Positions 8,095-35,534 of a DNA stretch of 35,534 bases are shown here, piece after piece; positions within the stretch are counted from its first letter, which is position 1, and each line of letters starts with the position of its first letter. Made by a program: the position numbers and the translations under genes. The notes beneath the pieces are model-generated. The model had not been told where the DNA came from and searched no databases. It worked only from the letters and a program-made list of their open reading frames with translations. Source of the DNA: a virus; the IMG/VR virus record IMGVR_UViG_3300025536_000008, positions 1 to 35,534 of that record. One strand, written 5' to 3'.

Positions 8095-9099
8095 TTACCC
8101 TTGTCCGGGGAGAGCCATTAGCCCTAAAAAGCTAATGGCTCTTTTTTTTTTGAATCCCTCCTCAATCCTGGCAACCGCAGCCTGCTTTCTCTCCCAAATT
8201 TCCAACTCCTTGCCACTCAACTTAGGTGCCACCCAAACTGCCCTCTTAACGTATGGAAGTCGATCCTCGGCCATAAACGCCTCCAAGGCACTCAGAAGGC
8301 CAATAGACAGCGTTTCATAAGTCAATGACCTATATTGGTTGCCAAACACTCTCGTGGCTTCTATGCCCACTTCTGGAGCGTCTGTGGGCATCCAATGTGT
8401 CATGTGGTCAAACGGCTCAATACAACGAACTGGATGATGTTTTAGCCATATTCCCCAGGTAGGCGTTGAGAATGCCCCAGCGACATGCAATGGCCCTGAG
8501 TCAACAAAAATACACAGACTTGCCGATTCAATCATTGCGCCTAAATGGTCTACAGTAGACGCTGGCGTTTTATCGAGATTGACACAGATGTATTTGTCAG
8601 AAGCATTGATGAATTCCTCAATCCTCGTGAGGATTTTATCATCTAGATTCTTGGCCCACGTTTTGGAAACGCCTTTCCCGTGTAGCAGAATTACCTTCTT
8701 CCCAAGTTCATCTCGTTGCTTAAAAACTGCGTTTTTAATCTCTGGATCGAGAATGCAGTTATAGCTGTAAAGTTCTGCCTTTGGCTCAAGCCCAAGATCA
8801 TCAACTATACAATGCGTAGTTTTTGTTTGAGGTAGGTTTTGATATTCCCGATCAGCCATTGGGAAATTGATATAGAGCGACTCTTCCCAATTCCAAACAT
8901 CAAAAGGTGAACATAATTGTTTATATGTTGCTAAACCACGAAGAATTGCTTCTCGGCCAGGAAGAGTTTCAACTGCAAATTGCATTTCTGGAATATAATG
9001 CTTGAGATGTTTAAGCACGATAGAAAATTGCATAAAATCACCCAAACCATGTTTCATGCGTATTAACCACCAACCAGGGAATCTAAGCGTTTTTGGCAT
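8095..9099 (-). CDS. GT9-family (heptosyltransferase-like, GT-B fold) glycosyltransferase.
   Basis: N-terminal WLIRMKHGLGDFMQFSIVLKHLKHYIPEMQF and C-terminal FVDSGPLHVAGAFSTPTWGIW match the GT9 signature (lGD...; DSGpmHlAaAlGtP). Confidence 0.7.
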   Translation of the reverse strand: MPKTLRFPGWWLIRMKHGLGDFMQFSIVLKHLKHYIPEMQFAVETLPGREAILRGLATYKQLCSPFDVWNWEESLYINFPMADREYQNLPQTKTTHCIVDDLGLEPKAELYSYNCILDPEIKNAVFKQRDELGKKVILLHGKGVSKTWAKNLDDKILTRIEEFINASDKYICVNLDKTPASTVDHLGAMIESASLCIFVDSGPLHVAGAFSTPTWGIWLKHHPVRCIEPFDHMTHWMPTDAPEVGIEATRVFGNQYRSLTYETLSIGLLSALEAFMAEDRLPYVKRAVWVAPKLSGKELEIWERKQAAVARIEEGFKKKRAISFLGLMALPGQG

Positions 9100-9148: not shown

Positions 9149-9203
9149 AGTAAGACTATTTCACATCTGGTGAGGCTTTTAGTAAGACTATTTCACATCT
9201 GGT
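9140..9203. repeat. Perfect 32-bp tandem duplication (9140..9171 = 9172..9203).
   Basis: gaggcttttagtaagactatttcacatctggt occurs twice. Copy 1 contains the 3' half of the terminator stem. Copy 2 overlaps the MCP stop codon (9203..9205) by one base at 9203. Confidence 0.95.
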
Positions 9204-10399
9204 TAGCTGGACTGGTCGTCTAGAACCACAAATGGGCTTACGGTAGAAGTACCGTCTGCCAAAGTTACTGGATCGCTGAGCAAGCTCATGCCAGCAAATC
9301 GGGCAACGCCTCTGTAGACCACGCAGTCCTTCTTGAAGCTCACATGAGGAGAAGCCTCAATCGTAATGCTGCGGTTCACACCAAGAGCATAAGCCCCAAG
9401 GTCAAGCAGCAACACGTCACCTTCGGCACCAATGCCAGCAGTGTACTCGGACACTAGAACTGGATAGCCTAGCAAGTACATCTGTAGACCGTTGGCAGCA
9501 TTGGCGTTTTGAAGCCAAATGGCCTGACCCAAAGAAGACTCAAAGCCAAGCAATGAGGCCAAGTGGTATGGATGAATGACCCATGCGGCACCAGCACCAT
9601 TATTCAAACGCTTGTGAGCCGCAATCATGTTGCGGGCATCATGGAATTTGAACTGATTGCTTGTGTCACGCTGAACAGTAATGGTGGCACCATTGCCAAT
9701 AATTCCATCGCTGTTTGCGCCGTTGCCGTTCAGAATAACGTAATCCATATAGGAACTTAGGGTCTGACGGAAACCATCTACAATAACCGACTCAAGACCG
9801 ACATTGTTGTTTTGCAGAAGTTCATTGGAAACTTCGACGAAACCCATTGCCTTGTCAGCCTGGAGTTTGACTTGCTTAAAGGTAAGATTGGTGCTGTCAG
9901 TCGGCTCGGCTGCCTCGTTCACAATTCCGACAAGCAGGCCGCCATTGAAGGCAGATTCTCCACCGCCACCAGGAGTGGCGGTCTGGTCAAGAACTGGAAT
10001 ATAGGTCACATCAGTCGGCATTGCAATCTGACGGGCACGGCTATTAAGAGATTCATAGCCATCGAGCTTGAAAAGCTCATTGCTCCAAATCTCAGGCACA
10101 GTAAAACCACCGACGCCATCAGTGCTTTGCACCATGTCGGTCGTGGTTTTGAAATCATACTTGTTAGAAAGCATGTTGAAAGCCTTCTCACGAGTAGAAT
10201 TACGAGCAGTCTTGCCCACCAAGGCAAGCCATTCACCAAAGGTTCGGTCGTCGGCTGCCTTTGCTACCGCAGGCAGTCCCTTGCGAGAAAACTGAGTCTT
10301 CATCTCGGCCACAAGCTCCGATTTAAGTTCGGTCTTCAAATTTGACTTGATTTCTTCATACAAGTCTTGCTCGCTAGGAGCATTTACATTTTCAGACAT
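9203..10399 (-). CDS. Major capsid protein, HK97 fold, with an N-terminal delta/scaffold-like coiled coil.
   Basis: It follows the prohead protease. N-terminal SEQDLYEEIKSNLKTELKSELVAEMKTQF, then GGFTVPEIWSNELFKL and a long beta-rich body typical of HK97-type MCPs. No separate scaffold gene is present. Confidence 0.85.
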   Translation of the reverse strand: MSENVNAPSEQDLYEEIKSNLKTELKSELVAEMKTQFSRKGLPAVAKAADDRTFGEWLALVGKTARNSTREKAFNMLSNKYDFKTTTDMVQSTDGVGGFTVPEIWSNELFKLDGYESLNSRARQIAMPTDVTYIPVLDQTATPGGGGESAFNGGLLVGIVNEAAEPTDSTNLTFKQVKLQADKAMGFVEVSNELLQNNNVGLESVIVDGFRQTLSSYMDYVILNGNGANSDGIIGNGATITVQRDTSNQFKFHDARNMIAAHKRLNNGAGAAWVIHPYHLASLLGFESSLGQAIWLQNANAANGLQMYLLGYPVLVSEYTAGIGAEGDVLLLDLGAYALGVNRSITIEASPHVSFKKDCVVYRGVARFAGMSLLSDPVTLADGTSTVSPFVVLDDQSS

Positions 10400-10532
10400 T
10401 TTGTTTTTACCTTGAAAAAGAGTTAGAATCACTCTTCTGCCGACTTTTCAGATGTGTGAATCTCCAGCTTTTCGCCTGATCCCTCACTCGTCGTTTGTCT
10501 TTGAAGCTGAAAGATATGTAGACATGAACAAT

Positions 10533-11755: not shown

Positions 11756-12139
11756 CTACATGGGAGCTTCTAGAATAGCTCTAACTTGATTCAATGTTTG
11801 TTGTGCCGCAGGAGTTAGGAATTGTCTATTCAAACCCAACGGGTTTTCTAGATATTTAGCATAGTAAACATTGGTCCCTATGCGGCCAACAATATCATTT
11901 CCCTCTTGAGAAACTTGGGTCGCAATAGATCGCCTTAGCTGTCCAGTATCTAATCTAGGTGGTTCTCCTGGCAAACTACGAATCTTCTTTTTGCCACCCT
12001 TGGGGCCGATTGTAACTCCAACCTTCGTCGAGATCAGACTCACAACCTTGTTGCGAACGATCCTAACGACCTTTTCCATGCGATGACGCAATTCGGCTTC
12101 AATCAATTCAATTGGTTGATTGTGAAAATTTGTTGTCAT
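11756..12139 (-). CDS. HK97 gp10-like head-tail joining protein, in an unusual position.
   Basis: Signature SLPGEPPRLDTGQLRRSI ... GTNVYYAKYLENP ... RQFL. ATG 12139 overlaps the portal stop (ATGA). Confidence 0.7.
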   Translation of the reverse strand: MTTNFHNQPIELIEAELRHRMEKVVRIVRNKVVSLISTKVGVTIGPKGGKKKIRSLPGEPPRLDTGQLRRSIATQVSQEGNDIVGRIGTNVYYAKYLENPLGLNRQFLTPAAQQTLNQVRAILEAPM

Positions 12140-14052
12140 ACAATTTCTCTCAACACACAATAGCACCCAGGATGAAGTGGTGGCAATTCATCATCTAGAC
12201 TCAATTCTGTCCCATCCAAAGGCTCACACAGAGGGCACGGAGCGTCGGTGCAAGTCCAAATAAATCCTTTAACCACGTCGCTCTCTATGGCACTCATTCT
12301 AAGTCCCTCATTGAATGCACGGGAACTCTCCGTCTTGGCAATCAATTCTGCCCGATAGGTACTAGCATTCTCAAAAATATCCTTAATCCTAGCAGTCAGT
12401 TCCCGAATGCCTGCCCCCTGCTCTAAGCCACTGGCAATCGCTTCACGAGTCAAGGCCAATGCCTCATCGACAGACTTTACAGTCGTGTCAAGAGTGGATT
12501 GAGACAGTCGCAAGGCATGTTCGGCTGCAAAAATGGCGGCATGGTCATTGAAAACATTCACTACATCGGGGTTAGCTCCAACCCGCACCAAAAGTTTTTG
12601 TCCGCTATTCTTGACAATGGCCTCTACCATTGGCTGCACGTCGTCTGCCAAGTCTTTAGGCCAATTTTTCATTGGTTTGAACTTGGTTGGAATGGTTTTT
12701 ATTTCAAGTTTGTCGAAGGTTTTTTCGATACTGTTGATTACGCTGTCTTTCCAAATGCCAAAATGTTTGGCACATATCTCCTGAATCTTTTTCTTTTGTG
12801 GAATGTAAGGAGCTTTCGGATACTTTTTGATCTCTTTTATCTCAGGCACGATTGAATTTTGCTCGACCTGAATATCACCCAAAGGCTCGTATCCAATTTG
12901 CGCCCGTGCCTCATCTACGGTCAGGATATTCGCACCTACAGCTTGAACCAAGTATGCCATCTGTTCTGCTTCCATCTCTGGAGATGGATCGTCAAAACAA
13001 AAGAACATATTCTCTGTGTCTTCAAATAAACTCAAGAACTGAGTGTTCAGAAAGTCCTGAATATCGAGCAGGCGAGGCATAATGGCACCGTCTACCCATT
13101 CCTTGAGAGCCACCTTATAGCTTGCCAAAGAAGTATTTTCTGCTCCTCGAAGAATCATCAAGGGCATAGAGAAGGCTTGAGCTATGTTCTCTTCTGCTCG
13201 TTCACTGATCTCAATGGCACCCAAATCAGCAGGCTTCCAGTTCATTATTGTGGCAGCCATGTCCTGGTCGGTGTACATGATGTCTTCGCCAGATAAGAAA
13301 GCACGCCATCTCCTTTTAAGTCTTTCAACTTCATCCTCGCCAACATCAGCGAACTCGCCCCTTGGGGAGAGCATCACAGCAGGACGAGGTTTCATTGCGG
13401 CGATGAGAGTCGCAAAAATCTTGTCCTGCAAAAGCAAGTTCTGGAAGCAAGACATTGCGGGACTTGTCCCTGGATAACTGTTATAGGGGTAAATCAGATT
13501 CTCAGTAGCCAGCACGAGCATCTGATTATCCCCGGCCTCTTGACCAAGAGGATAGATTTTGTCTGTGCCATATTCCCAATGAAGAATTAACCCATTGATT
13601 CCTCTGCGTGGCGTCACAACATTCGGTGGCAACACATAGAAATCGGCATTGTCTCGATGATTGATATAGGCAATTCCGCTCATATCCAAGTAAAGCTGGA
13701 CATAACTAATCAAAGCCCTGCCGGTCATGTAAGGATTAGGTTTTTTAAGAGCGGTCAATGAGTCGTGCGAAGTGACTTCTTCCACATTCTCATTACCGCT
13801 GACCATATACTTCTGTCGCATCTGTTGGACATATTTCTTCTTGTTTGGAGTCAAAGATTTGGTCTGATCTCCCGAGGTTGTGCGATAGAGTCTCAAAGTG
13901 GCGGAACTTACTTTGTCGGCGGTTTTTTTGGCACAAGAATAAATGGTACTTTTATACGAGGATAAAAGTGCATTGATATTCATGCCTGCACAGTTCTGTC
14001 CACCGCCAAAAGAAGTTTCCACATTCAATGATTTTTTCTTGTATTTTGTCAT
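12136..14052 (-). CDS. Portal protein fused to a Mu F / SPP1 gp7-like minor head protein domain.
   Basis: The N-terminal ~400 aa is portal-like (LKKPNPYMTGRALISYVQLYLDMSGIAYI). The C-terminus has the MuF signature TESSRAFNEG...CPLCEPLDGTELSLDDELPPLHPGCYCVL. ATG 14052 overlaps the upstream stop (TAATG). Confidence 0.8.
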   Translation of the reverse strand: MTKYKKKSLNVETSFGGGQNCAGMNINALLSSYKSTIYSCAKKTADKVSSATLRLYRTTSGDQTKSLTPNKKKYVQQMRQKYMVSGNENVEEVTSHDSLTALKKPNPYMTGRALISYVQLYLDMSGIAYINHRDNADFYVLPPNVVTPRRGINGLILHWEYGTDKIYPLGQEAGDNQMLVLATENLIYPYNSYPGTSPAMSCFQNLLLQDKIFATLIAAMKPRPAVMLSPRGEFADVGEDEVERLKRRWRAFLSGEDIMYTDQDMAATIMNWKPADLGAIEISERAEENIAQAFSMPLMILRGAENTSLASYKVALKEWVDGAIMPRLLDIQDFLNTQFLSLFEDTENMFFCFDDPSPEMEAEQMAYLVQAVGANILTVDEARAQIGYEPLGDIQVEQNSIVPEIKEIKKYPKAPYIPQKKKIQEICAKHFGIWKDSVINSIEKTFDKLEIKTIPTKFKPMKNWPKDLADDVQPMVEAIVKNSGQKLLVRVGANPDVVNVFNDHAAIFAAEHALRLSQSTLDTTVKSVDEALALTREAIASGLEQGAGIRELTARIKDIFENASTYRAELIAKTESSRAFNEGLRMSAIESDVVKGFIWTCTDAPCPLCEPLDGTELSLDDELPPLHPGCYCVLREIV

Positions 14053-14237
14053 TACCAAATCCTTAAATGTCCCACAACCTCGAAGAGAGCGTCATTATTG
14101 ACATTACACCAACTATCAGCTTTTTGTTTCTTATCTATTGGTTTCGGCTGGGCTTTTGGCTTTTTCCCACGTTTCTTGGTCTTGGGTTCAGGAGGCTGTC
14201 CCTTCTTCCACAATCTATCAAATATCTCCGTCATCAT
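14052..14237 (-). CDS. Small basic protein (61 aa).
   Basis: Lys/Pro-rich ORF bridging TerL and the portal. It overlaps both neighbours. Confidence 0.4.
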   Translation of the reverse strand: MMTEIFDRLWKKGQPPEPKTKKRGKKPKAQPKPIDKKQKADSWCNVNNDALFEVVGHLRIW

Positions 14238-16365
14238 CTCTCCTCATTGCTTGTTTACGTTCTAGATGTAGAACAAGGTAGCGCAATCCGTCGCAGTTCT
14301 TCACCAGAATATCATTGGCATAATACTCATCACCATCTCCGACAGTGATGTTATATACATCATGCCGACTTTTTAGGTGTTCGATTTTGATGATATGCGG
14401 CATCTGGGCCTCGCCTACGGTGTCTTGCTTTGCAATTTTGATGGCAGAATCTTCCATGCTTGCTATGAGCTTCGTATGTTCTTCCACAGCAATCACATTG
14501 TTTGGAGGTAATTGTTTTTCCGAAGCGACATTTTTTGGCATGTTTTCGGTGCCATTCCAGTCCTGCTGCCGAGCCGTGCCATTTAGAAGCAAGCGGACGG
14601 ATTGTTTCGAGGAGTTTCCGATTGGCACGCTTCTGCTTTTCGGTTCGGGGATGTCTTCTGAAATGCTCCGTGGGACTAACGCATTCGAGATTTTGGATTG
14701 AATTGTTTGCTGGGTCGCCGTCCTTGTGATGAATATGCCATCCTTTGGGGATGATCCCTCGCTTTTCTTCCCAGACAACCCGATGTAAATATCTTGGTTT
14801 TCCTTGCCAGCCTTCGGATTTGAAGTATTTTCTGTCAGCCTCGTTTGAAGACTCTGGGTAACGTCTGTATTTGACGCCTTTGTATATTTTTGTTTCACGC
14901 ATACTCTATCATAGTATCGCAAAGCATCAATTCGACAGAAATCTTTACCTTCTGCCCAAACAGGATGGTCGGGGGTGCCCGTCAGGGTGTGACCATTTGA
15001 CAAAGTAATTTGCATTACACAAGCATTTTTTTGAGTAAGAGCTATTGCAGTGATGGGCTTGTAGCCACTTCTTGTTAAGGCGAGGTCATGCAATTTCAAA
15101 TCAACAAGGGTTTTTGGTCCTTCAATTGTGTCAATCAGAGTTTCTCCAATAAGACAGGCGTGGTCTTTTTGCCCATTCATCGGCTTATTTCCCACTGCAT
15201 TCCCATCCTCGCCAGTCAAATATCTATACGTCAAAAATTCGCTGTGTAAGTTCGGACAACATTCAGTCACAATCTTCAATTTGCCACGTCTTATTCGAGC
15301 TTGTACCAAACTAATTCCCAAAGAAATGCTCTCCGGCCCCTTGAGTGCTGGCTTGGCATTCACGCCTAATTTTCTTAAAGCAAGAATTGCATTCTTTTGA
15401 TGATCGCAAGTCCACAACCTGATTTTATCGCCAGTAGCTTCCTTAAATTTCTTCTCAAAGCCAGTAATGCTGTCAAACAACTCTAGAATGTCACCAGGAG
15501 CATAATGCTCGTGAATTATCCACAGGCAGTCATCGTAATCAATTAGCCCTAAGAGCCAACAATGAGGGTCGGTGCCGCCAAAATCTACCGCCGCTACATA
15601 TTGTGCTGCCTCTGGCAACCCTTCGTCAGGCATATCCACAAAACAACTCTTCCCATTGGCATCTACTGGATCATAAACCAACCCTGGCATCTTCGAGAAT
15701 TTGCCCTCGAAATTCATCTCAAATTCCCAAGTTGGCATTTCCTTTCTAGCCTTCTCGATGAGTGTCATATCGCTGGCTGGATTTAGCCAGGAAGGAAAGA
15801 CTCGATAGAAATAATTTTTATCACCGTTATCAGCAGCAGCCATTATTTTTGTTTTAAGCCAATCATACTTCATATAAGGTGTTGAACTCAAAAAGATTCT
15901 GGCTCCTTTGCGATTAACTAATCTTCCCTCGACTGTTTTGAGCGTCGAATAGGGACAGTTCCCACATTCGTCTATCCACCCTGAGTCGGCTTTTATTCCT
16001 TCATAATCCGCTTCTGCGGATCGGAAGTAGATAACACCACCACCAGGGAGTTTATACTCGTGCAAGCCGCTCGTGCCTTGATAAGCAGTCCCTTGTAAAG
16101 TCTTCTCTAAAGCAGTTTTTGTCGCCTTTGTAACAACATCGAATGTACTGGCAACCACCAAATGTGTGCCTTTGCCCTTGAGCTTCTCTATTTCTCTGAG
16201 TTGCCATAGGGCGGCACACGCTGATTTGCCGCCATTTTTGCCTCCTATAGCGGCAATAATTCTGGCCTCTGATTGCAAACAATCAAATTGCCCCTCGTGA
16301 ACTGGAAAGTATTTGTTTGTGATGCCATTCTCATCAATGAAAAGATCGCCCCAATTCAATGTCAT
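14218..16365 (-). CDS. terL: Terminase large subunit precursor containing an intein (extein 1..403 and 691..715).
   Basis: Walker A AIGGKNGGKS, Walker B WIDECG and nuclease AVDFGGTDPHCW. The conserved C-terminal KDHA-CDGLRY motif is split by a 287-aa insert. ATG 16365 overlaps the TerS stop (ATGA). Confidence 0.9.
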   Translation of the reverse strand: MTLNWGDLFIDENGITNKYFPVHEGQFDCLQSEARIIAAIGGKNGGKSACAALWQLREIEKLKGKGTHLVVASTFDVVTKATKTALEKTLQGTAYQGTSGLHEYKLPGGGVIYFRSAEADYEGIKADSGWIDECGNCPYSTLKTVEGRLVNRKGARIFLSSTPYMKYDWLKTKIMAAADNGDKNYFYRVFPSWLNPASDMTLIEKARKEMPTWEFEMNFEGKFSKMPGLVYDPVDANGKSCFVDMPDEGLPEAAQYVAAVDFGGTDPHCWLLGLIDYDDCLWIIHEHYAPGDILELFDSITGFEKKFKEATGDKIRLWTCDHQKNAILALRKLGVNAKPALKGPESISLGISLVQARIRRGKLKIVTECCPNLHSEFLTYRYLTGEDGNAVGNKPMNGQKDHACLIGETLIDTIEGPKTLVDLKLHDLALTRSGYKPITAIALTQKNACVMQITLSNGHTLTGTPDHPVWAEGKDFCRIDALRYYDRVCVKQKYTKASNTDVTQSLQTRLTENTSNPKAGKENQDIYIGLSGKKSEGSSPKDGIFITRTATQQTIQSKISNALVPRSISEDIPEPKSRSVPIGNSSKQSVRLLLNGTARQQDWNGTENMPKNVASEKQLPPNNVIAVEEHTKLIASMEDSAIKIAKQDTVGEAQMPHIIKIEHLKSRHDVYNITVGDGDEYYANDILVKNCDGLRYLVLHLERKQAMRRDDDGDI
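14296..15156 (-). mobile_element. Intein within TerL (287 codons, Cys1 to Asn287, +1 Cys).
   Basis: Block A CLIGETLIDT, block B GHTLTGTPDHPVW, blocks F/G DVYNITVGDGDEYYANDILVKN followed by C. Coordinates were verified codon by codon (TGT at 15156..15154, AAC at 14298..14296). Confidence 0.85.
14360..14902 (-). CDS. HNH homing endonuclease encoded inside the intein in a different reading frame (+2/-1 relative to TerL).
   Basis: ATG-initiated 180-aa ORF with LHRVVWEEKRGIIPKGWHIHHKDGDPANNSIQNLECVSPTEH and a C-terminal Cys/His finger CDCCGRTYEAHSKHGRFCHQNC. The frame offset follows from the coordinates (16365 mod 3 = 0, 14902 mod 3 = 1). Confidence 0.8.
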   Translation of the reverse strand: MRETKIYKGVKYRRYPESSNEADRKYFKSEGWQGKPRYLHRVVWEEKRGIIPKGWHIHHKDGDPANNSIQNLECVSPTEHFRRHPRTEKQKRANRKLLETIRPLASKWHGSAAGLEWHRKHAKKCRFGKTITSKQCDCCGRTYEAHSKHGRFCHQNCKARHRRRGPDAAYHQNRTPKKSA

Positions 16366-16907
16366 TTGGCCTCGATTGTGAGTGGTTGTGGTTGTTTGTT
16401 TCCAACCACAAAAGCCACGCTGGCTACCGTTTGGTTTTGTTGCTCGTCCAATTCGACCAATGTTCCAGATGGGAAGAACTTCTCGAATTGAAGGAAGAAC
16501 TTCATCGCATTGCCCAAGCGACCCGAATGAATATATTCCCTCATTTCTTCATCTACTTTTGGCATTCCGTGTCGAGCAAATGCCTCGAAGAGAGTTCTTA
16601 CGGCTGCGATCCTAATCGGACCCATTTTTTTGTCGTAGTTAAAAATCGCTGTGGGAATATCGGCATCAGCCCTGGCGACGTGATCCTCTGGCAATGCTCC
16701 TACAGCCAAACATGAGCTACTGATTTTGCCGGTATAAAGAACCTGATCCATTGAGGTATATTGACCGGCATCATACTTGCCAAGCCGAGTAATCAATGTG
16801 CCCTTCTTAATGCCAAGTTCCTTGGACCACTCGGATATAGTCAGCTTCTTACCGTTGTGTTCCAAAACACGATGGTAAGGCATATTGTAATGTGTTTTCC
16901 CAGCCAT
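16362..16907 (-). CDS. Terminase small subunit candidate (N-terminal HTH).
   Basis: It lies immediately upstream of TerL and is translationally coupled to it. HTH KKLTISEWSKELGIKKGTLITRLGKY. Function is assigned by synteny. Confidence 0.55.
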   Translation of the reverse strand: MAGKTHYNMPYHRVLEHNGKKLTISEWSKELGIKKGTLITRLGKYDAGQYTSMDQVLYTGKISSSCLAVGALPEDHVARADADIPTAIFNYDKKMGPIRIAAVRTLFEAFARHGMPKVDEEMREYIHSGRLGNAMKFFLQFEKFFPSGTLVELDEQQNQTVASVAFVVGNKQPQPLTIEAK

Positions 16908-19288
16908 TAAGCCACCGTATAGAACCCAGGTCGATAACTATTGGACTCGGCCAATAACCATTCCTCACTCCTCACCAAAGAAGTGATTCTTACTTCCTGC
17001 ATCTTCCCCTCGAAATACTCCTCATTTTCTTTTCGCCCAATGTAACTTCCTGTAATACTAGGAGCCAATGAGCCATAAGGAATCTCAGTAAATCCTTCTA
17101 ATAGTCCGTCGAGATAAATCGAAATACCAACAAATGGTTCCCAAATTATCGCAATGTGATACCAACAGGTCGTCTCTAACACGGTTCTTCCCCTCACTCG
17201 ATATTCTTTGATTCCATCGGCGGTCACTACTTGCGCCCGACCCCACAGTTGTTGTCCATCTGTATGTCCAATGGCAATTTGATAACTGCTTTCATTTTCA
17301 GTTCTCCCCATTGAAAAGAAAACCTTATGGAAGTAAAGATTACTTCGTTTTGCCCACAACGACACAGTAAATGCTTGGTCATCATTCAATGAAAATTCTG
17401 GGGTGTTGATATAATCCGAGCCATCAAACAAGTTTGCCCTATAGAACAAGCCTCTGGCCCGATTTGGCGTCTTGGTGATCCATCCGCCGCCACCTTGGGC
17501 GTCATAAGCATTAGTGGTGCTATCCTTAAATTCACCCACGGTTCCATCTCCTTGTTCTAAGAGATGATAGATTGCCTCATAATCTTCATAGAGTTGATTT
17601 GGAACACTTGGTCTAATTCCGCCTCCAAAACCAAATCCGCCAGTTGGCTCAAACCAATTTTGGTCGGTAGGAGCAGTGCCGCCAAACTTAAAGCCGCCCG
17701 CTGGCATGATCCGATAAGTGATCGAACAAATGCCGTCGTCCTTAACCAAAATTGCAGCGTCATTCAATCCGCTGAATTCAAAACCACCTGACGGAATGAA
17801 GGTTTGATCTTCTTCTGTCGATGCTTCTCCACCAAGTTCAAGACCTCCAATTGGAGTCTCGTGCATTATTTTATAGGGGATTGCACTTCCGCCAAATTCA
17901 AATCCTTCGCCATCTACTGATGGAGTGTCTGTAATTGGAGCATGGCCGCCGAATTCCATTCCGCCAATAGAATGATCCGCTTCACCTGTAAATTCGATTC
18001 CTCCATCTGGATGAAAGACTTCGATTGGAGAGGCAGTTCCTCCGAATTCAAATCCTTCTCCATCGACTTCGATTGGAATTACTCTGGTTCCTGGTGCTTC
18101 GCCACTGAATTCAAATCCTCCAGATGGAGTCTCACTAATACAATCTATAGTGAGATTTAGAACTGGAGCAGTTCCATTGCCTGCCAGGAAAGCCCAGCGA
18201 TTATTTCCAGTGTCGCTACCATTGTCTTGTGTTGTGATGACAATGGCATTGCCAGAGGTCCAACCTGGACGAGTAATGATCTCTGTGATGATCGGAGAAA
18301 TATCGGGCGTGTCATAGAATTGACTGGCTTGCCAGGGCGTGGGATTCCAATCTACATAAGCGGACGTTAAGACCCTAGATTCAGCATCAGTTTCGTCTGT
18401 TGGGGCCGTTGCGTTGTCGTCTGCGAAGGCAAAAATTCTAAGTTTGATTCTGGTATCGGTCGTATCTGTTTGAAAATAAGGTTGCGCACCAGGATGTGTT
18501 CCACCGTCCCCTTTTCCTGCACTAGCTCTATTGCCAGCGCCAGAACTGTAAAGAACATAAAGAACAATGTGGTTGCCTGGGGTCCAACCGGCTCGATCAA
18601 CAATTTCTTGAATTACACTGGAGATGTCTGGAGATGTGTAATAATTGAAGGGAGGTCCAGCAGCAAATGAAGGCACAGTCCAAGAAACACTCGCACTTGT
18701 AACTGATCTTCCATCAGCATCAGTAGCAGTGGCGGGTGCGGTCGCATTATCTTCCGCCACCGCAACAATCGTAACATCTAAAGATGTTGAATTAGTTTCT
18801 TCTGCAAGAAAACTAATTCTCGTGTCACCAACAGTATCTCCTTGAGCAATGTAAACATCTTTATATCTCAAGAAGCAATTTGTATTATTGCCACTGATTT
18901 TCCCAAAGCGGTCAAAATCATTAGTGGTTAAACTCCCGCCACTTACCCAATAGCCGTCATCAGCATCAGCAAAGATTATTGGATTGCCGAGGTTTATATT
19001 GGATTGTAGAGTGACTGAGGCAGTCTCAATTACATTAGGTCCGACATGAACTGGCACAAAACGAAAGAATTGCTTGGTAGGAACTCCGTAATAACCAAGT
19101 TGGAGATTAGGGATCGTGGCACCAGTATAAAAATCAGGAATGCCAGGACGCCATTCACCGTTATCCAACACATTATCAATCTGAATAGATTGAGGGTCTA
19201 TGCAAATTTCACTCGAACCACCTTTTTCAGCTAGTTCGATATTTGCAAGATAAGAGAGTTCGGAACCAAGACGGCCAGTAAATGTCAT
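16907..19288 (-). CDS. Large repeat protein with a C-terminal LamG/concanavalin-like domain. Probably a fibre or receptor-binding protein.
   Basis: It has an internal ~95-aa duplication (DNATAP...TSPDISxxIxEIxxRxGWTxGN). It has nine GGFEFGG-type repeats (aa ~385-560). The C-terminal segment FDGSDYINTPEFSLNDDQAFTVSLWAKRSN...ISIYLDGLL is typical of LamG_3-like domains. Its stop overlaps the TerS ATG (TAATG). Confidence 0.7.
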   Translation of the reverse strand: MTFTGRLGSELSYLANIELAEKGGSSEICIDPQSIQIDNVLDNGEWRPGIPDFYTGATIPNLQLGYYGVPTKQFFRFVPVHVGPNVIETASVTLQSNINLGNPIIFADADDGYWVSGGSLTTNDFDRFGKISGNNTNCFLRYKDVYIAQGDTVGDTRISFLAEETNSTSLDVTIVAVAEDNATAPATATDADGRSVTSASVSWTVPSFAAGPPFNYYTSPDISSVIQEIVDRAGWTPGNHIVLYVLYSSGAGNRASAGKGDGGTHPGAQPYFQTDTTDTRIKLRIFAFADDNATAPTDETDAESRVLTSAYVDWNPTPWQASQFYDTPDISPIITEIITRPGWTSGNAIVITTQDNGSDTGNNRWAFLAGNGTAPVLNLTIDCISETPSGGFEFSGEAPGTRVIPIEVDGEGFEFGGTASPIEVFHPDGGIEFTGEADHSIGGMEFGGHAPITDTPSVDGEGFEFGGSAIPYKIMHETPIGGLELGGEASTEEDQTFIPSGGFEFSGLNDAAILVKDDGICSITYRIMPAGGFKFGGTAPTDQNWFEPTGGFGFGGGIRPSVPNQLYEDYEAIYHLLEQGDGTVGEFKDSTTNAYDAQGGGGWITKTPNRARGLFYRANLFDGSDYINTPEFSLNDDQAFTVSLWAKRSNLYFHKVFFSMGRTENESSYQIAIGHTDGQQLWGRAQVVTADGIKEYRVRGRTVLETTCWYHIAIIWEPFVGISIYLDGLLEGFTEIPYGSLAPSITGSYIGRKENEEYFEGKMQEVRITSLVRSEEWLLAESNSYRPGFYTVA

Positions 19289-20477: not shown

Positions 20478-21383
20478 ATGCTCAACAAATATGAATTAGA
20501 AAAAGTTCTCAAAAGTGGCGCATCTAATGTTGAAGCCGCCACAATTTTTGATTGTGGTGTGCGCACAATAGTGCGTGCCAGGAAAACTTTTGGTCTTGAT
20601 CGTGGTTTCATCAGTCACGGCAATCATATCCTTAGTGACGTGCAAAATGAAATCCTCACGGCATGTCTATTGGGAGATGGTTACATCAACTTTTCATCTA
20701 GAGGTCACTCTAGATTTGGTTTTGGGCAAGCGAAGCGAAGGCGAAAATATGTCGAATTTATAAATGAACTTCTCAAGCCATTATCAGTGACGCCTTTTTT
20801 TGAAACTCGATTGGACCCAAGAGTAAAATCCGGGAAGAGTGAATCTTGGCGATTTTATACTCACGCAGATCACCAATTTACTGATCTTCGTGAGAAGTGG
20901 TATAACCCAGAAAAAAAGGTGCCGAGTTGGTTAAAATTGTCACCCCTTATCTTTTCTCATTGGTTTCTTCAAGATGGTTGCAATTCACCAGAAAAAAGAG
21001 CTTTGACTCTTGCAACAGATGCGTTTAGCAGAGCCGATGTGGAATTTCTACAAGAGCGACTCAGAACTGATCTAGAGTTGGTTTCTACAATTCAAGGAAG
21101 CAAACAATTTCACTTAGCCATCGGTGCTTATGAATGTGAAAAGGCTTTATCCATGATAAGGCAATATAATAACTTTCGTTGCTTTCGATACAAGAATCGC
21201 TTCATCAAGAAGAAAAACCCAAATCTAGGTGCATCTAAACTTAACAAATCTATTGCAGAACAAATTAGAATCAAATGGAAGAATGGCGTTAAACCACCTT
21301 TGTTGGCCGAGGAATACGACGTGGGGGTTGTGTCCATCTACAATATCCTAAGCTATCGAACCTATGCTGTTACTTCAACATAA
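20478..21383 (+). CDS. Free-standing LAGLIDADG homing endonuclease flanked by HTH domains.
   Basis: Motif 1 ILTACLLGDGYINF and motif 2 IFSHWFLQDGCNS. N- and C-terminal HTH-like segments. Opposite strand to its neighbours. Confidence 0.75.
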   Translation: MLNKYELEKVLKSGASNVEAATIFDCGVRTIVRARKTFGLDRGFISHGNHILSDVQNEILTACLLGDGYINFSSRGHSRFGFGQAKRRRKYVEFINELLKPLSVTPFFETRLDPRVKSGKSESWRFYTHADHQFTDLREKWYNPEKKVPSWLKLSPLIFSHWFLQDGCNSPEKRALTLATDAFSRADVEFLQERLRTDLELVSTIQGSKQFHLAIGAYECEKALSMIRQYNNFRCFRYKNRFIKKKNPNLGASKLNKSIAEQIRIKWKNGVKPPLLAEEYDVGVVSIYNILSYRTYAVTST

Positions 21384-22003
21384 TGCACTTTGGAGTGAAA
21401 TTTCCAAGTATTGTAAGCAACTCCAAAAGCACTCAATTTCAAACTGTCATTCGTGTCGTCAGCGGTCACATTCATTATAATGGGAGCATCTAATGCGAAA
21501 AATAGATTGTTCACTGATCCAACTATATCAGTTGTGCTGCCATTTTTCTCAATCGTTCCAACATGAAGCCAAGCACATGTCTCATTCGTACTTGTATTTT
21601 TTGCGATGGTGTGAATCAAAAATGTCCAAGCTGAATCATCAGGCAGATTCAATCTTGAATTGGCTATGGCATCAATAAAGAACTCAGTATCAGATGTTGT
21701 GGTAATGGTGGCATACAAATCAATTTCCTGTTGCCACCGAGTATTTACATCTCTTGTAATGACATGGGTGACATCCTTGCCGCTATTGTGAAGAACAGCC
21801 GTCGTGTCCTCCATGCCTCGTTGAACTGTAAATGTATTCCCACTAATGGAAGTAACTAACAAAAGTTCTTGTTCAATTACAATTCTAAAATTGGCAATGG
21901 TTGGAAACCCCGTTACGCTCACGACATCTAATGTGGTTTGACTATCGTCGATAGAACCATCTAGAAGTGTTTGGATATTGTTAGTGAACGTGTCGAGCAT
22001 CAT
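21362..22003 (-). CDS. Fibre/structural paralogue B (213 aa).
   Basis: MMLDTFTNNIQTLLDGSIDDSQTTLDVVSVTGFPTIANFRIVIEQELLLVTSISGNTFTVQRGMEDTTAVLH is colinear with paralogue A. ATG 22003 overlaps the upstream stop (TAATG). Confidence 0.65.
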   Translation of the reverse strand: MMLDTFTNNIQTLLDGSIDDSQTTLDVVSVTGFPTIANFRIVIEQELLLVTSISGNTFTVQRGMEDTTAVLHNSGKDVTHVITRDVNTRWQQEIDLYATITTTSDTEFFIDAIANSRLNLPDDSAWTFLIHTIAKNTSTNETCAWLHVGTIEKNGSTTDIVGSVNNLFFALDAPIIMNVTADDTNDSLKLSAFGVAYNTWKFHSKVHYVEVTA

Positions 22004-22647
22004 TAGGCTGTAATCTCCGTCCAAAAAACTTTTGACCGCCATTGCCAATTATTGCTGCTCGTGCCAGTCACAGTAATTATGAGAGCATCATTGGTGTCGT
22101 CGGCTGTGATTGCCACTGTCAGAGCGGCGTCTTCTTGATTAAATAATTGCCCTACAGTTCCAACAATGTCAGTTGTCGTTGAATTGTGTTCGATACAACC
22201 GGCATGATACCAACCACCAGTTTCATTTGTGTCTTCATTTTTCGCCACGGTCAAAACTGTAAACATCCAAGCCGAGTCTGATGGCACGAGTAATCTAGAG
22301 TTGCTCACCCCATCTAGAAAAATTTCTGTTGCCGTGTTGTTAGTTGTTCTTCCGCTCAATAAAAAGTATTGCCCAAATCTAGTAGCCACTGCCGCCGTGA
22401 GAATGTGAGTAATTTTTTGGTTATCCACATGGGCAACCGCTGTAGTGCCTTCAATTTCACGGATAACCGTTAAAGTATTGCTGGAAACGTCTGTAACCAA
22501 CATCAACTCCTGTTCGACCAGAACTCTAAAGTTTGGTGTCAAAGGAAAGAGGGAGGCATCAGTCACATCGAAGCTCGTTTGCGAATTGTCGATGTCGCCA
22601 TCCAAAGTGGCTTGTCCGAAATTTGAAAAAGTGTCTAAGAGAGCCAT
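22003..22647 (-). CDS. Fibre/structural paralogue A (214 aa).
   Basis: MALLDTFSNFGQATLDGDIDNSQTSFDVTDASLFPLTPNFRVLVEQELMLVTDVSSNTLTVIREIEGTTAVAH. The C-terminal halves also align (ITADDTNDALIITVTG versus VTADDTNDSLKLSAFG). Confidence 0.65.
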   Translation of the reverse strand: MALLDTFSNFGQATLDGDIDNSQTSFDVTDASLFPLTPNFRVLVEQELMLVTDVSSNTLTVIREIEGTTAVAHVDNQKITHILTAAVATRFGQYFLLSGRTTNNTATEIFLDGVSNSRLLVPSDSAWMFTVLTVAKNEDTNETGGWYHAGCIEHNSTTTDIVGTVGQLFNQEDAALTVAITADDTNDALIITVTGTSSNNWQWRSKVFWTEITA

Positions 22648-23876: not shown

Positions 23877-23985
23877 TGGTAGGGACACCCATAGACACCC
23901 ATTTCTCAGGTCTTTTACTTATATGTACCTAAAGTACATAATATGTTAGAACTCAGGAAATGGGTGTCTATGGGTGTCCCTACCA
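23877..23985. repeat. 29-bp perfect inverted repeat (23877..23905 and 23957..23985). Each arm contains two tandem 10-bp iterons (gacacccat). A nested 7-bp palindrome lies in the 51-nt spacer.
   Basis: tggtagggacacccatagacacccatttc is the exact reverse complement of gaaatgggtgtctatgggtgtccctacca. The spacer contains tatgtacctaaagtacata. Confidence 0.95.
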
Positions 23986-27198: not shown

Positions 27199-29217
27199 AT
27201 GAATGAATTACAAATTGGCAAGGCTGGAGAATATCTTGTCTGTGCTGACTTAATTATGCAAGGGTATGTTGCATTCCCATCGGAACAAGGATTGCCATTT
27301 GATGTAGTCGTCGATGTGAATGGGAAGTTAATTAAGGTACAGGTGAAGACAACGCTGGAATATAAGCCCTTTAATGGCTGCATAGGTTATGTTTACCATG
27401 TCAAACAATGCGGTAAACATGGAAGGCAAACTTATAGAACCCAAGATGTTGATATTTTTGCGCTTGTAGCTCTTGATAAACGGCTCATTGGTTATGCTCT
27501 ACCTTCACAGATGAAGACAACCATGTTTTTTCGCATACCTGATTTTGTTTATCCGGCAGATAAGGCTCGGACTCAGCGTGTTGAGAGAGATACTAGAATA
27601 AATGAATTAGTGAAATCGGGGATGCCTAAAAGAGATATAGACAGATTGCTTGGTCTTAGATTAGGAACAACATCAAACATTTTGGCGAAGCCCATAAACA
27701 ATCACAAAAGAAACATGTTTGGAAAACGACAACTGGTAGTAAGAAAAGCTCCCGCCACCGATCCTCAATATGAACAGCGGCCCACGAGGACAATTCGTCT
27801 ACGGCCTCGCTGCTTAGCCCAAGCCCCTGAACAGATGCTCAAGATAAATCATGGAGCAGGCGGCATAGGTGACGCCCTGTTGGGCCTCACGATTACTCGT
27901 GGCCTGCAAGCCCAAGGTTATCAAATTGCTTATGCAGTTTCTCCTCTGGCCCAACCCTTTGTAGCCCTTTTTGAGGGTTGCGATTTCTTGGCGGAACACA
28001 AGCATGACGCCAATCAAATTGAATATCCTGATGAGAACTTACAAATCAATGTCGGTTACACTATCGAATGCAAGGAAAAATGTGGCAATGGGTTGATTCC
28101 AAGATGGAAGAGATACGCAGATAATCTGGAATACTCTGGAGAACCTATAATCCCAGAGTTAAGGGATCGGAGGGGGATTGAAGAGTTAGGGCTGTCTTTC
28201 AAAGACAAGGTAATTCTTGCCCCATTTTCCACCTGGGAAGCACGGGCTTGGCGTATCGAGAGTTGGCTGACGTTGAATCATTTGCTTCAATCAAAAGGAT
28301 ATGAAACTGTCGTCATCAGCCAGAAGCATAAAAAGCTAGAGTTATTCAAAAATACAGAGATTGTGGAAGAGGCCACTGCCGCCAAGGTGGCGGGAGTTCT
28401 GCTTAACGCCGCAGCCTGTGTGGCCTGTGACTCGGGGATGAGCCACCTCGCAGGATTGCTTGGTACATCCTGCATCACCTTATGCGGACAAACCACTGGA
28501 AAAGATATTTTTGGTTTGTATCCCAGCGTGAAAAGCATCCAAGGTTCTTTGTTGTGTAATGGATGCTGGTGGAACGAGCCGCCGTATGACCATCATGCCT
28601 GTGGTCATTGCTGTGCGAATTTGCAATCAATTACACCAAGTCAAGTTTTGCACGAGATAGATCAGATTTGTTTGCCAAAATTTGCCAAGGACGAGGCGGT
28701 AATTTGTCGAGGAAAATTGGCGGTGGTTCGGGATTGTTTAATGGAAGTGAAACATCTGGAGGGGGATGTTGGGGAGTTTGGTGTCTATCGTGGGGGCGTG
28801 GCGGCGTTCATCCAGCATTACTTGCCAAACGATCAGCTTCATCTCTATGACACGTTCTGCGGTATGCCTTTTGGCGATAAACATCCTGGGGGTCGTCACC
28901 GAGCGGGAGATTTCGCAGGATGTAGCATGGAACAAGTGAAAAGTTTAGTCCCCAAGGCAAAATTATATCCAGGTGTCTTTCCCAATTATGCGTTGCCGGA
29001 TGTGAAATATAAGTTCACCCATCAGGATTTTGATCTTCAACAAAGTGCAGAAGCGGCTTTTGTCTATAGCAAACCGAGACAAGTTCCTGGTTCATTGATG
29101 TTGATCGACGATTTTGGATGGGAAAATTGTCCTGGCATAAAGGTAGCTGTGGCGAAATGTTTCCCAGGCTCCTCGATTGAGCGACCCTCGGAATATCAGG
29201 CACTTATCAGGTTTTAA
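27199..29217 (+). CDS. Multi-domain fusion: PD-(D/E)XK nuclease-like domain + HTH, GT9 glycosyltransferase, and TylF-like SAM O-methyltransferase.
   Basis: aa 1-100: GKAGEYLVCADLIMQGYVAF...PFDVVVDVNGKLIKVQVKTT...DVDIFALV. HTH: INELVKSGMPKRDIDRLLGLRLGTTSNIL. GT9: an internal MLKINHGAGGIGDALLG (ATG 27835) and ACDSGMSHLAGLLGTSCITLCG, then the Cys cluster CNGCWWNEPPYDHHACGHCC. Methyltransferase: GDVGEFGVYRGG...LYDTFCGMP...DFDLQQS...GSLMLIDDFG. Confidence 0.75.
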   Translation: MNELQIGKAGEYLVCADLIMQGYVAFPSEQGLPFDVVVDVNGKLIKVQVKTTLEYKPFNGCIGYVYHVKQCGKHGRQTYRTQDVDIFALVALDKRLIGYALPSQMKTTMFFRIPDFVYPADKARTQRVERDTRINELVKSGMPKRDIDRLLGLRLGTTSNILAKPINNHKRNMFGKRQLVVRKAPATDPQYEQRPTRTIRLRPRCLAQAPEQMLKINHGAGGIGDALLGLTITRGLQAQGYQIAYAVSPLAQPFVALFEGCDFLAEHKHDANQIEYPDENLQINVGYTIECKEKCGNGLIPRWKRYADNLEYSGEPIIPELRDRRGIEELGLSFKDKVILAPFSTWEARAWRIESWLTLNHLLQSKGYETVVISQKHKKLELFKNTEIVEEATAAKVAGVLLNAAACVACDSGMSHLAGLLGTSCITLCGQTTGKDIFGLYPSVKSIQGSLLCNGCWWNEPPYDHHACGHCCANLQSITPSQVLHEIDQICLPKFAKDEAVICRGKLAVVRDCLMEVKHLEGDVGEFGVYRGGVAAFIQHYLPNDQLHLYDTFCGMPFGDKHPGGRHRAGDFAGCSMEQVKSLVPKAKLYPGVFPNYALPDVKYKFTHQDFDLQQSAEAAFVYSKPRQVPGSLMLIDDFGWENCPGIKVAVAKCFPGSSIERPSEYQALIRF

Positions 29218-29270: not shown

Positions 29271-29298
29271 TTGACAATCCACTTTTTCGGCGTATAGT
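29271..29298 (+). promoter_or_regulatory. Near-consensus sigma70-type promoter.
   Basis: TTGACA (29271..29276), 16-nt spacer, TATAGT (29293..29298), upstream of the 29320/29365 ORF. Confidence 0.5.
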
Positions 29299-34107: not shown

Positions 34108-35534
34108 TTATGCCAACCCCACCTTTAATCCCTTGACGGACGTGCTTATATTAGACAAGTGTTGATTCATCTGTTTTTGTTCGTTAAGTTGATTCTTCTG
34201 CAACTCAGTTTGTTGTTTGGCGTCTGATACATCCATCGTATTCAAATCACGCCATGCTTGCCCTAATTCTTGAAATTGAGGTTTTGCCTGACCTAAACGA
34301 ACCAAAGGATGAGTTTGAGGCATATTCTCTTTGTTCCAAATCTTCGATCTCTCTGCGACATCCTTGGCAATGTTGTCCGAGAAGCCGGTCAATTTGCCCA
34401 ATGCCGAACCAATCGCAGACATCTTCAACAACTTGTCCACGATCCGCCCCAGCGTCAGGTCGATATTGATTAGATCGAATGCGAAATTTTCAATGGCCTG
34501 ACCTATGTCGCCAAAAATCGAGCCGATAATCATAAAGAACATTTCCCATTGGGTCCAATCAATGCTGTCAATTATGTCTGCCACTCTCTGAAATTGGGCA
34601 ACCAACCCATTCTGGACCTTGCTCACCAGTTCAGTCATCCATTTGGCACCTTGTCCAAACCAAGCCACTATTTTTCCCAGCAGTTTTCCAAAAGGAGCAA
34701 AAATGGTCAGCAACTCCTTCCCAAAAATTACCATTGCGGTCAAAGGATTCATTACTAGAAAAACGGCCCCAGCCAACATGCTGATAACTTTTAGAACTGC
34801 TTTGAAGATGTCTTTAATCCCCGTGCCTTCACCAACAATGTCGGCCAGACCCTTATAAATGTCTGCCAACCATTTAACCCAATCATTAGCAATTTCTAGA
34901 ATTGCCTGGGCAAATGGCGCAAGTATTTGACCGAGATATTTCAGTGCTTCTCCAACATTAGCCATCAATTGGTCCCAAGCCCCGCCCAAACTATTCACTT
35001 GCTTCTTTTCATCTTCCAGACCAGCATTTCCAAGCTCGGCCAACTTCTCCATACGTTGATTTTGCCCGTGATACCCACGCAAAGCATGAGTGTCGGTCTT
35101 AATGCCTTTGGATTCCTCGGTCAGAATCTTCATGGCGTTTTCTGTGCTGCCGCCAATCTTGTTTTTTAGTCCAACAGCTAATTGTGTGAAGTTTTCAAGT
35201 TCCTTGGTTGGGACTTTCATGTCCAAGCCAATTGAGGCCACCTTGAGAATTTCCTCAGTGGTCAGTCGGCTCGTCTTGGACAAGTTACGAGCAAAATCTT
35301 GAAAACTTTTTGTGAACGATTCGAGTTGAGATTGCTTTCCTTCAAAATCTAGCGAAGCCTCTGCGGCAGCCTTGAAGGCAACGAGTTCTTTTCTCGCTGC
35401 CACAAAGCTCTTTAACGCCTTCATTAGCGAGCCAACTAGAACGGCTATGGCTGCACCCCAGCCCAAAGTGGAGGTCGAAAGCACCGCAAACAGCCCAGCA
35501 AATCGACCCAATCCAAGGGCACTCAAAGCAGTTC
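34108..35534 (-). CDS. Tape measure protein, remaining part (continuation of 1..665 across the circular junction).
   Basis: Long helical, Ala/Gly/Leu-rich protein with hydrophobic segments (LGWGAAIAVLVGSLM, ISMLAGAVFLVMNPLTAMVIFG). Synteny fits: major tail, chaperone G/G-T, this gene, distal tail genes. Confidence 0.85.
   Translation of the reverse strand, partial: TALSALGLGRFAGLFAVLSTSTLGWGAAIAVLVGSLMKALKSFVAARKELVAFKAAAEASLDFEGKQSQLESFTKSFQDFARNLSKTSRLTTEEILKVASIGLDMKVPTKELENFTQLAVGLKNKIGGSTENAMKILTEESKGIKTDTHALRGYHGQNQRMEKLAELGNAGLEDEKKQVNSLGGAWDQLMANVGEALKYLGQILAPFAQAILEIANDWVKWLADIYKGLADIVGEGTGIKDIFKAVLKVISMLAGAVFLVMNPLTAMVIFGKELLTIFAPFGKLLGKIVAWFGQGAKWMTELVSKVQNGLVAQFQRVADIIDSIDWTQWEMFFMIIGSIFGDIGQAIENFAFDLINIDLTLGRIVDKLLKMSAIGSALGKLTGFSDNIAKDVAERSKIWNKENMPQTHPLVRLGQAKPQFQELGQAWRDLNTMDVSDAKQQTELQKNQLNEQKQMNQHLSNISTSVKGLKVGLA
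35408..35534. repeat. Terminal overlap, copy 2 (identical to 1..127).
   Basis: Exact 127-bp match to the window start. Confidence 0.95.

Follow-up and report, generated by a model that had tools for sequence, protein, structure and literature searches.

In Cluster O mycobacteriophages (Corndog gp35-38), glycosyltransferase (GT) and O-methyltransferase genes have been described, for which the authors proposed a role in placing methylated glycans on the capsid (PMC4351075). Other phage GT-B enzymes are able to place heptose on 5-hydroxymethylcytosine (5hmC; bioRxiv 10.1101/2023.12.21.572611). Among the bacterial autotransporter heptosyltransferases (BAHT), TibC uses ADP-heptose as donor and carries the cysteines C339, C342, C358 and C370 (PMC4358343). 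We compared these systems with a locus in the virus record IMGVR_UViG_3300025536_000008 of IMG/VR, of which the whole stretch of 35,534 nucleotides (nt) was analysed and is hereafter called the window. The locus is a single open reading frame (ORF) of 672 amino acids (aa), in which a PD-(D/E)XK nuclease with a helix-turn-helix (HTH) region is continuous with a GT of family 9 (GT9) and a TylF-type sugar O-methyltransferase (together, GT-MT). Our main conclusion, to which we give a probability of about 85%, is that a recent 97-bp deletion has merged two neighbouring phage genes into this ORF.

The window represents a complete tailed-phage genome, with an exact 127-nt overlap between positions 1-127 and 35408-35534 and thus a circular unit of 35,407 bp. 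Three products are recorded for the locus: the 672-aa protein, present in NCBI, JGI/IMG and Logan, and two proteins of 500 and 200 aa, both from one ENA contig. This contig, k141_298287 (35,568 nt; ENA ERZ27300258), is a second public assembly of the same phage. There, the nuclease gene (9388-9990 of the fetched stretch, L007) is followed by a 10-nt spacer and then by a 500-aa GT9-TylF gene (10001-11503 of L007). The DNA alignment of the window with k141_298287 revealed a single clean 97-nt indel, the extra bases falling at window position 27712/27713, and the undeleted genome would measure 35,504 bp. No other difference separates the assemblies over the 17,367 nt that were compared, with 9,901 nt and 7,376 nt of BLASTN identity flanking the indel. 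The sole BLAST “mismatch” sits in the 7-nt overlap AAAAGAA/AAAATAA bordering the indel. The deletion junction (27706-27712) reads AAAAGAA, which together with AAAATAA makes up an imperfect direct repeat of 7 nt.

The 97-nt segment holds the last 29 codons of the nuclease, its TAG stop and AGGAAAATAAAC ahead of ATG 27715, and the AGGA ribosome-binding site of the GT-MT gene lies within it. The 200-aa ENA product is the same as the window ORF up to residue 171 and then continues with REQRKSTQVYRGGGKYHRDFSFALAIKNF before its stop. No frame of the window encodes this peptide. The nuclease tail was also sought in the other two frames around 27640-27900 and was found in neither; a frameshifted tail was therefore rejected, the tail being simply absent from the window. 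The ENA tail fits the family consensus GRYLxDxxFxxAI, including the invariant Tyr187, and the window sequence at this place does not. Since the ENA tail agrees with the consensus of the homologues, the 97 nt are ancestral and the window displays the derived state.

In the undeleted genome, ATG 27715 (M173 of the 672-aa ORF) is preceded by TAGGAAAATAAAC and starts the separate 500-aa gene. The starts of the two genes are 613 nt apart in the undeleted genome, where they are in different frames, and 516 nt apart in the window, where the genes are in frame because the length of the deletion is 3n+1. An earlier note on this DNA, made from the sequence alone, had suggested that an independent GT-MT product could begin at an internal ATG (27835, M213); the start of the separate gene proved to be ATG 27715 instead. 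The first 40 codons of the GT9-TylF gene (MFGKRQ...APEQ; 27715-27834, + strand) are predicted to be disordered, with a predicted local distance difference test score (pLDDT) of 24-34 at residues 171-220. In the window, no Shine-Dalgarno (SD)-like motif was found at ATG 27715 or at ATG 27835. As only 17 of the 31 genes of this phage display an SD-like motif, its absence at these two sites is compatible with the presence as well as with the lack of a separate GT-MT product.

The 672-aa ORF itself runs without any internal stop from 27199 (ATG) to 29217 (TAA) on the + strand, as first reported, and every motif listed in the earlier note, including ATG 27835, was located in it. The nuclease part contains GEYLV (residues 10-14), FDVVVD (34-39) and VQVK (47-50). 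In the GT part are found GGIGD (221-225), CDSGMSH (410-416), CNGCWW (453-458) and CGHCC (468-472), and the methyltransferase part contains EFGVYRGG (526-533), YDTFCGMP (550-557) and LIDDFG (635-640). The PD-(D/E)XK, GT9 and TylF identities proposed for these parts were confirmed by the Pfam searches and by fold matches: PDDEXK_5 matched residues 1-104 (E 2.7e-11; 44.1 bits for a curated cut-off of 26.1), Glyco_transf_9 residues 335-445 (E 2.1e-10; 40.8 bits for a cut-off of 22) and TylF residues 500-644 (E 4.3e-07; 29.9 bits for a cut-off of 23). Each match exceeds its gathering score, which places all three far beyond chance. An AlphaFold2 model of the ORF, built from 57 aligned sequences, has a mean pLDDT of 79.8; it is confident at residues 1-165 and 300-672, disordered at 167-221 and poor at 244-297. 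Foldseek searches of the PDB with this model matched the TylF-type enzymes SpnH, NovP, MycF and CalS11 (E 6e-10 to 1e-6), the GT9 enzymes WaaF, 3TOV, WaaC and TibC (8e-7 to 1e-4) and the homing endonuclease I-Ssp6803I (2OST; 1.7e-6, template-modelling score TMt 0.61-0.64). The description of a homing-endonuclease-like module fused in frame to a GT-MT gene holds in essence; as a meaningful architecture, it does not stand beside the two-gene sister assembly.

The deletion itself, the existence of a two-gene state and the identity of each domain are shown; the fused form can be read in more than one way. The deletion, between AAAAGAA and AAAATAA, took the last 29 codons and the stop of the nuclease together with the ribosome-binding site of the second gene. 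The GT-MT part of the fused variant, attached through a disordered linker of 50 residues, would still be made and would probably still work, and the nuclease would be deprived of its conserved tail. A quite different reading is that the 672-aa protein is an evolved and functional three-module enzyme, in which the nuclease/HTH part directs the GT-MT to DNA or regulates it. The uninterrupted frame, the record of the product in NCBI, JGI/IMG and Logan and the preservation of the catalytic motifs of all three modules are what such an enzyme would display, and the GT relatives bear other, Cys-rich N-terminal extensions, so that this terminus tolerates extra modules. However, an otherwise identical genome splits the same sequence into two genes, and the stop, the 10-nt spacer and the change of frame between the modules in the ENA assembly overturn the idea of the fusion as an evolved unit. 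A stop or frameshift between the modules was what the earlier note had named in advance as refuting its reading. Moreover, the fused form is without the conserved C-terminal tail of the nuclease family, the joint is a predicted disordered segment, and the fusion is absent from every other examined member of either family. Among the ORFs scanned, there is also no cytosine methyltransferase, hydroxymethylase or TET-like enzyme to supply a DNA acceptor. We therefore regard the evolved three-module enzyme, largely refuted by the two-gene variant, as very improbable.

It is also very doubtful that the fusion is an assembly artefact of the window, the two-gene form alone being natural. The assemblies do differ at one site only, and the junction falls in a short A-rich repeat, but a 7-nt imperfect repeat is far below the assembly k-mer and cannot collapse a k=127 graph. 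The exact 127-nt terminal overlap is typical of such a graph, so that junction-spanning reads should exist, and the 672-aa product was recovered from several sources and two contigs. Furthermore, one contig of 70,930 nt corresponds to about two deleted units of 35,407 nt rather than to two units of 35,504 nt. The deleted form would thus be a real molecule. Against a recent deletion, it must be said that the two variants are known from assembled contigs, that the 672-aa form, with its several sources and two contigs, may be the commoner one in the sampled population, and that selection could conceivably have favoured the fused form. The exact 54-nt pattern upstream of the junction found no match in IMG/VR or in JGI metagenome contigs.

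We then examined the nuclease gene. Its PD-(D/E)XK core (27199-27510, + strand, aa 1-104) is supported by PDDEXK_5, by PHROGs 24524 and 5018 and by a pLDDT of 86-95. The helical linker and HTH region that follows (27553-27711, + strand, aa 119-171) is cut on its C-terminal side by the deletion; in the AlphaFold2 model, its helices span residues 119-139, 144-150 and 157-163. None of the Pfam HTH families matched the window sequence. The region aligns to the HTH part of stand-alone homologues of about 195 aa (core, HTH and tail), two of which possess Pfam HTH_7 or HTH_23. As a complete member of this HTH-bearing subfamily, the window protein falls short, being without the tail GKYHRDFSFALAIKNF that is found in the ENA variant (P0277). 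A likeness to the N-terminal HTH of the LAGLIDADG protein of the same genome (20478-21383), noticed at first reading, was not recovered by BLASTP, which gave no alignment at E≤100.

By sequence, the best PDB match of the nuclease is 2OST, in which D35 and QVK align to I-Ssp6803I, at positions that are reportedly catalytic in that enzyme. Residues E11, D35, Q48, V49 and K50 are invariant among the aligned homologues (sets of 17 and 10 sequences). Given the invariance of E11, D35, Q48 and K50 and the match of D35/QVK to I-Ssp6803I, the product of the undeleted gene is most likely an active, HTH-bearing DNA endonuclease. For the N-terminal 212 residues, 795 homologues were found; the 120 listed range from 132 to 248 aa, and every one of them stands alone. 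In BFVD, the best match is likewise a stand-alone phage protein (164 aa, 52% identity), and the sole match in INPHARED is a stand-alone PDDEXK_5 protein of Klebsiella phage KO-TP1 (33% identity). Reciprocally, no PDDEXK module was detected in any of the 17 GT9 relatives with precomputed Pfam calls and aligned N-termini. The relatives examined thus encode the nuclease and the GT-MT separately, a point that had been left for checking. Nuclease homologues occur in unrelated phage settings: one neighbours genes for DnaB and a DNA methyltransferase, another HNH and DUF5131 genes. With a G+C content of 39.3%, the nuclease is below both the GT-MT (47.4%) and the whole genome (44.1%).

We infer a homing role for this nuclease from three features: the solved structure nearest to it is that of a homing endonuclease, it is found in phages as a free-standing gene of patchy distribution, and its G+C content is comparatively low. 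Several observations weigh against this interpretation. No close relative phage without the nuclease gene, no empty allele and no homing site were found, the nearest GT-MT relative being only 48-50% identical; mobility or homing is therefore putative. In addition, another contig (L009, 4001-5328) carries a 194-aa nuclease homologue upstream of an N6_N4 DNA methyltransferase gene, which it overlaps by 4 nt. This pairing is restriction-modification-like, and some PDDEXK_5-HTH proteins may not be homing enzymes.

The second gene encodes a GT9-type (GT-B) domain (27835-28689, + strand, aa 213-497), identified by Pfam, profile and Foldseek matches, followed by a TylF-type sugar O-methyltransferase domain that ends with the stop (28696-29217, + strand, aa 500-672; pLDDT mostly >90). 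For the GT part, profile searches matched WaaF (1PSW, 3.6e-9) and WaaC (1e-7), and Foldseek matched 1PSW (8e-7), 3TOV (1e-6), WaaC (2e-5) and TibC (2e-5). Invariant residues of the GT9 domain include G-x-G-D (D225), R349 and the S412 and H416 of the DSGxxH motif. The TylF part matched SpnH by profile (5I10/4CDZ, 6e-10), as well as NovP, MycF and CalS11, and the same enzymes by Foldseek (SpnH 4CE0, 6e-10, TMt 0.71; NovP, E 6e-10; MycF and CalS11 too). ExGVxxGG (EFGVYRGG), D551, the DxD at 610/612 and the DD at 637/638 align to residues of SpnH. We take these to be the S-adenosylmethionine (SAM) motif and the metal-binding Asp triad, by analogy with the NovP and MycF structures.

At E≤1e-30, the GT-MT part has relatives in 148 representative clusters, more than 40 of which span both the GT and the methyltransferase; INPHARED contains no match to it. 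We conclude that the GT9-TylF enzyme belongs to an unnamed family of phages and prophages, in which the GT9-TylF fusion recurs in dozens of clusters. Viral databases already hold phage GT9 proteins as well as proteins named Aah/TibC and macrocin O-methyltransferase. Most GT9-Cys4 relatives (P0002-P0008, P0010, P0011, P0013 and P0018) carry an N-terminal extension of 100-150 aa that is rich in CxxC pairs (zinc-ribbon-like). The GT-MT of the window has no such extension, and neither do some relatives; in P0014, a Cys-rich region is located C-terminally. The window sequence RPRCLAQAPEQ-MLKINHG resembles the end of the extension in P0002 (CATCADRLPHEVT-MQINHG), and a Cys-rich N-terminal domain may have been lost in the window protein.

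A Cys4 cluster (C453-x2-C456-x11-C468-x3-C472; 28555-28614, + strand) lies in the C-lobe of the GT. Its four cysteines are invariant in 18 family members and in a 16-sequence sub-alignment, so a structural metal site is likely. The cluster had first been described as an insertion, which it is not clearly: the stretch from GxT(T/S) to the final “ItP..V” helix is about as long as in WaaF of Escherichia coli (profile positions 310-350 vs. 291-326 in WaaF). The equivalence with TibC/AAH suggested in the earlier note would make the GT-MT a BAHT-type protein O-heptosyltransferase with an iron-finger. The invariant Cys4 site in the C-lobe, a weak match to TIGR04414 (2e-4), the recovery of TibC both with the family profile (E 0.009) and in the Foldseek search (E 2e-5) and the ADP-heptose synthesis genes linked in relatives would agree with this, but the TIGR04414 score is 20.3 bits for a cut-off of 200 and the spacing of the cysteines is not that of TibC. 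A profile search with the Cys region alone misses TibC at E≤10, WaaF and 3TOV outscore TibC as fold matches, and the N-terminal beta-barrel is absent, residues 167-221 before the GT being disordered in the model. LPS (lipopolysaccharide) heptosyltransferases match at least as well, and no BAHT-style autotransporter substrate was seen among the ORFs scanned. Membership of the BAHT family is therefore improbable.

As for function, the GT9 domain would use ADP-heptose to place a heptose on an acceptor, after which this sugar would be O-methylated by the TylF domain, a scheme that we consider fairly probable. ADP-heptose synthesis genes adjoin two relatives. In one with 42% identity (P0004), a full-length HldE-like gene (NF008454, E 3.7e-63) lies directly downstream, and in a more distant one (P0017), a gene combining PfkB and CTP_transf_like overlaps the end of the GT gene. 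Other GT9 relatives adjoin GT2, GT4, methyltransferase, radical-SAM or sulfotransferase-like genes, and several end tail or fibre operons. Some points weigh against this scheme. The window phage has no HldE-like gene, and the acceptor-binding N-lobe of the GT is poorly modelled (pLDDT <50 at 244-297), the C-lobe being confident. All the NCBIfam heptosyltransferase matches are far under their equivalog cut-offs, and those of the LPS heptosyltransferases are missed (TIGR02193, 37.2 for 185.3 bits; TIGR02195, 22.8 for 134.6; NF008204, 26.5 for 437). With such scores, the sugar and the acceptor are therefore inferred. Two phage-like contigs with GT9-Cys4 relatives (L001, 2710-4140; L015, 9152-10480) carry their own HldE-like bifunctional heptose kinase/adenylyltransferase immediately downstream; upstream in L015 are three Methyltransf_24 genes, one class-I methyltransferase gene and one radical-SAM gene.

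The acceptor is the weakest part of this reading. As a first and rather tentative guess, we propose virion proteins (capsid or fibre), because of the structural-operon settings of relatives, of a second GT9 gene beside the capsid gene and of the mycobacteriophage precedent (PMC4351075). In the window, the capsid gene is of HK97 type (9203-10432, - strand), and the second GT9 gene (8095-9099, - strand; Pfam E 1.4e-6) follows directly downstream. Its kinship with the GT9 of the 672-aa ORF is no more than distant; fusion to class-I or FkbM methyltransferase domains is frequent among its relatives, one of which comes from the planctomycete Schlesneria paludicola. Modification of the host envelope (LPS core or another surface glycan) rather than of virion proteins, with a role in lysogenic conversion or superinfection exclusion, is our second guess and seems rather unlikely to us, even if WaaF and WaaC, two LPS heptosyltransferases, are the nearest GTs of solved structure. 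Family members do occur in temperate elements, beside integrase or serine-recombinase genes, and the window gene belongs to the early/replication region, outside the structural module. Against the envelope are the low LPS heptosyltransferase scores given above, the several relatives that are co-directional at the end of tail/fibre operons, the second GT9 gene directly after the capsid gene and, in mycobacteriophages, the O-methyltransferase and GT genes located among head genes (PMC4351075). DNA as the acceptor is ranked lower still, and very improbable at best, because the ORFs scanned contained nothing akin to a 5hmC pathway.

Among GTDB species genomes, the sole match is a prophage in a metagenome-assembled genome of Planctomycetota. 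A narrower family alignment also found one JGI contig, apparently the host contig of another locus of our set (L006). Because of the GTDB prophage match and of the Schlesneria paludicola relative of the second GT9, the host is probably a member of Planctomycetota. One might go further and see in GT9-Cys4(-TylF) proteins a new phage family of protein O-heptosyltransferases that would coat the virions of Planctomycetota phages with O-methylated heptose, together with the second GT9 and the HldE of relatives. This is a speculative proposal that we judge unlikely; if true, the O-methyl-heptose coat would represent a BAHT-like chemistry recruited for virion glycosylation. Still more exotic would be a fused variant whose nuclease/HTH module tethers the GT-MT activity to DNA.

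The rest of the genome is that of a tailed phage. A fusion of portal and Mu-F-like head-morphogenesis proteins (12136-14058, - strand; 640 aa) matches Phage_portal (E 8e-32) and Phage_Mu_F (E 1.2e-9). The large terminase (14218-16365, - strand) contains an intein-like insert, with an Intein_splicing score of 34.2 bits, just below the cut-off of 35.8. Further genes of the window encode a prohead protease, fibre-like proteins (21362-22647), a Laminin_G_3 protein (16907-19288), PrimPol and a D5-type helicase. Two endonuclease genes of the selfish type have an orientation contrary to that of the structural genes around them, one of HNH type (1922-2677, + strand; phrog_3377, E 2e-55) and one of LAGLIDADG_2 type (20478-21383, + strand; E 2.6e-22). 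Just past the D5-type helicase gene, a perfect 29-nt inverted repeat (23877-23905 and 23957-23985, spaced by 51 nt) contains a doubled GACACCCAT motif and may represent a terminator or an origin-like element. The 672-aa ORF is closely followed by a near-consensus sigma-70-type promoter (TTGACA-16-TATAGT, 11/12; 29271-29298, + strand), located before the next + strand genes.

These results call for caution in annotation, since what looks like a remarkable multi-domain “fusion” in a phage assembled from metagenomes can result from a strain-level deletion that joins a selfish nuclease to the gene beside it. In the present case, the origin of the fusion is settled by a second assembly of the same genome. 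The locus offers a snapshot of decay, in which a free-standing nuclease loses its tail and stop and the downstream gene stays translatable. Of remaining interest is an uncharacterised phage family for heptosyl and methyl transfer, with at least 148 representative clusters at E≤1e-30. If methyl-heptosylation of the virion or of the host surface were true, phage glycobiology would be extended to a poorly studied host phylum.

Compared with known systems, the nuclease is closest, by sequence and by fold, to I-Ssp6803I (2OST), the homing endonuclease of the Synechocystis tRNA-fMet intron, with which it shares the Pfam family PDDEXK_5 and the aligned D...QVK. However, I-Ssp6803I is intron-encoded, whereas the phage nuclease is free-standing and has an additional C-terminal HTH and tail; the identity with 2OST is only about 18%, and the window copy is also without the last 29 residues. 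With WaaC and WaaF (2H1H, 1PSW) and 3TOV, the best solved GT matches, the phage enzyme shares the GT-B fold and the DSGxxHLA and G-x-G-D motifs, but differs by its invariant Cys4, its fusion to a methyltransferase, its divergent N-lobe and its phage origin. TibC and AAH have in common with it the GT9-like core and a Cys4 in the C-lobe, which in the phage enzyme has another spacing and is not accompanied by a beta-barrel. The TylF domain belongs to the same Pfam family as SpnH, NovP, MycF and CalS11, which are its best fold matches (TMt about 0.7) and share the SAM motif and the Asp triad. It is shorter, as it matches profile positions 69-235 of 264 and is without about the first 70, and it is fused to a GT; these enzymes act on antibiotic deoxysugars, whereas the phage substrate is presumably the transferred heptose. 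Finally, the Corndog gp35-38 set likewise combines phage-encoded GT and O-methyltransferase, but with other GT families, separate genes and an actinobacterial host. Unlike in that set, the GT-MT described here adjoins the replication module, and only the second GT9 adjoins the capsid gene.

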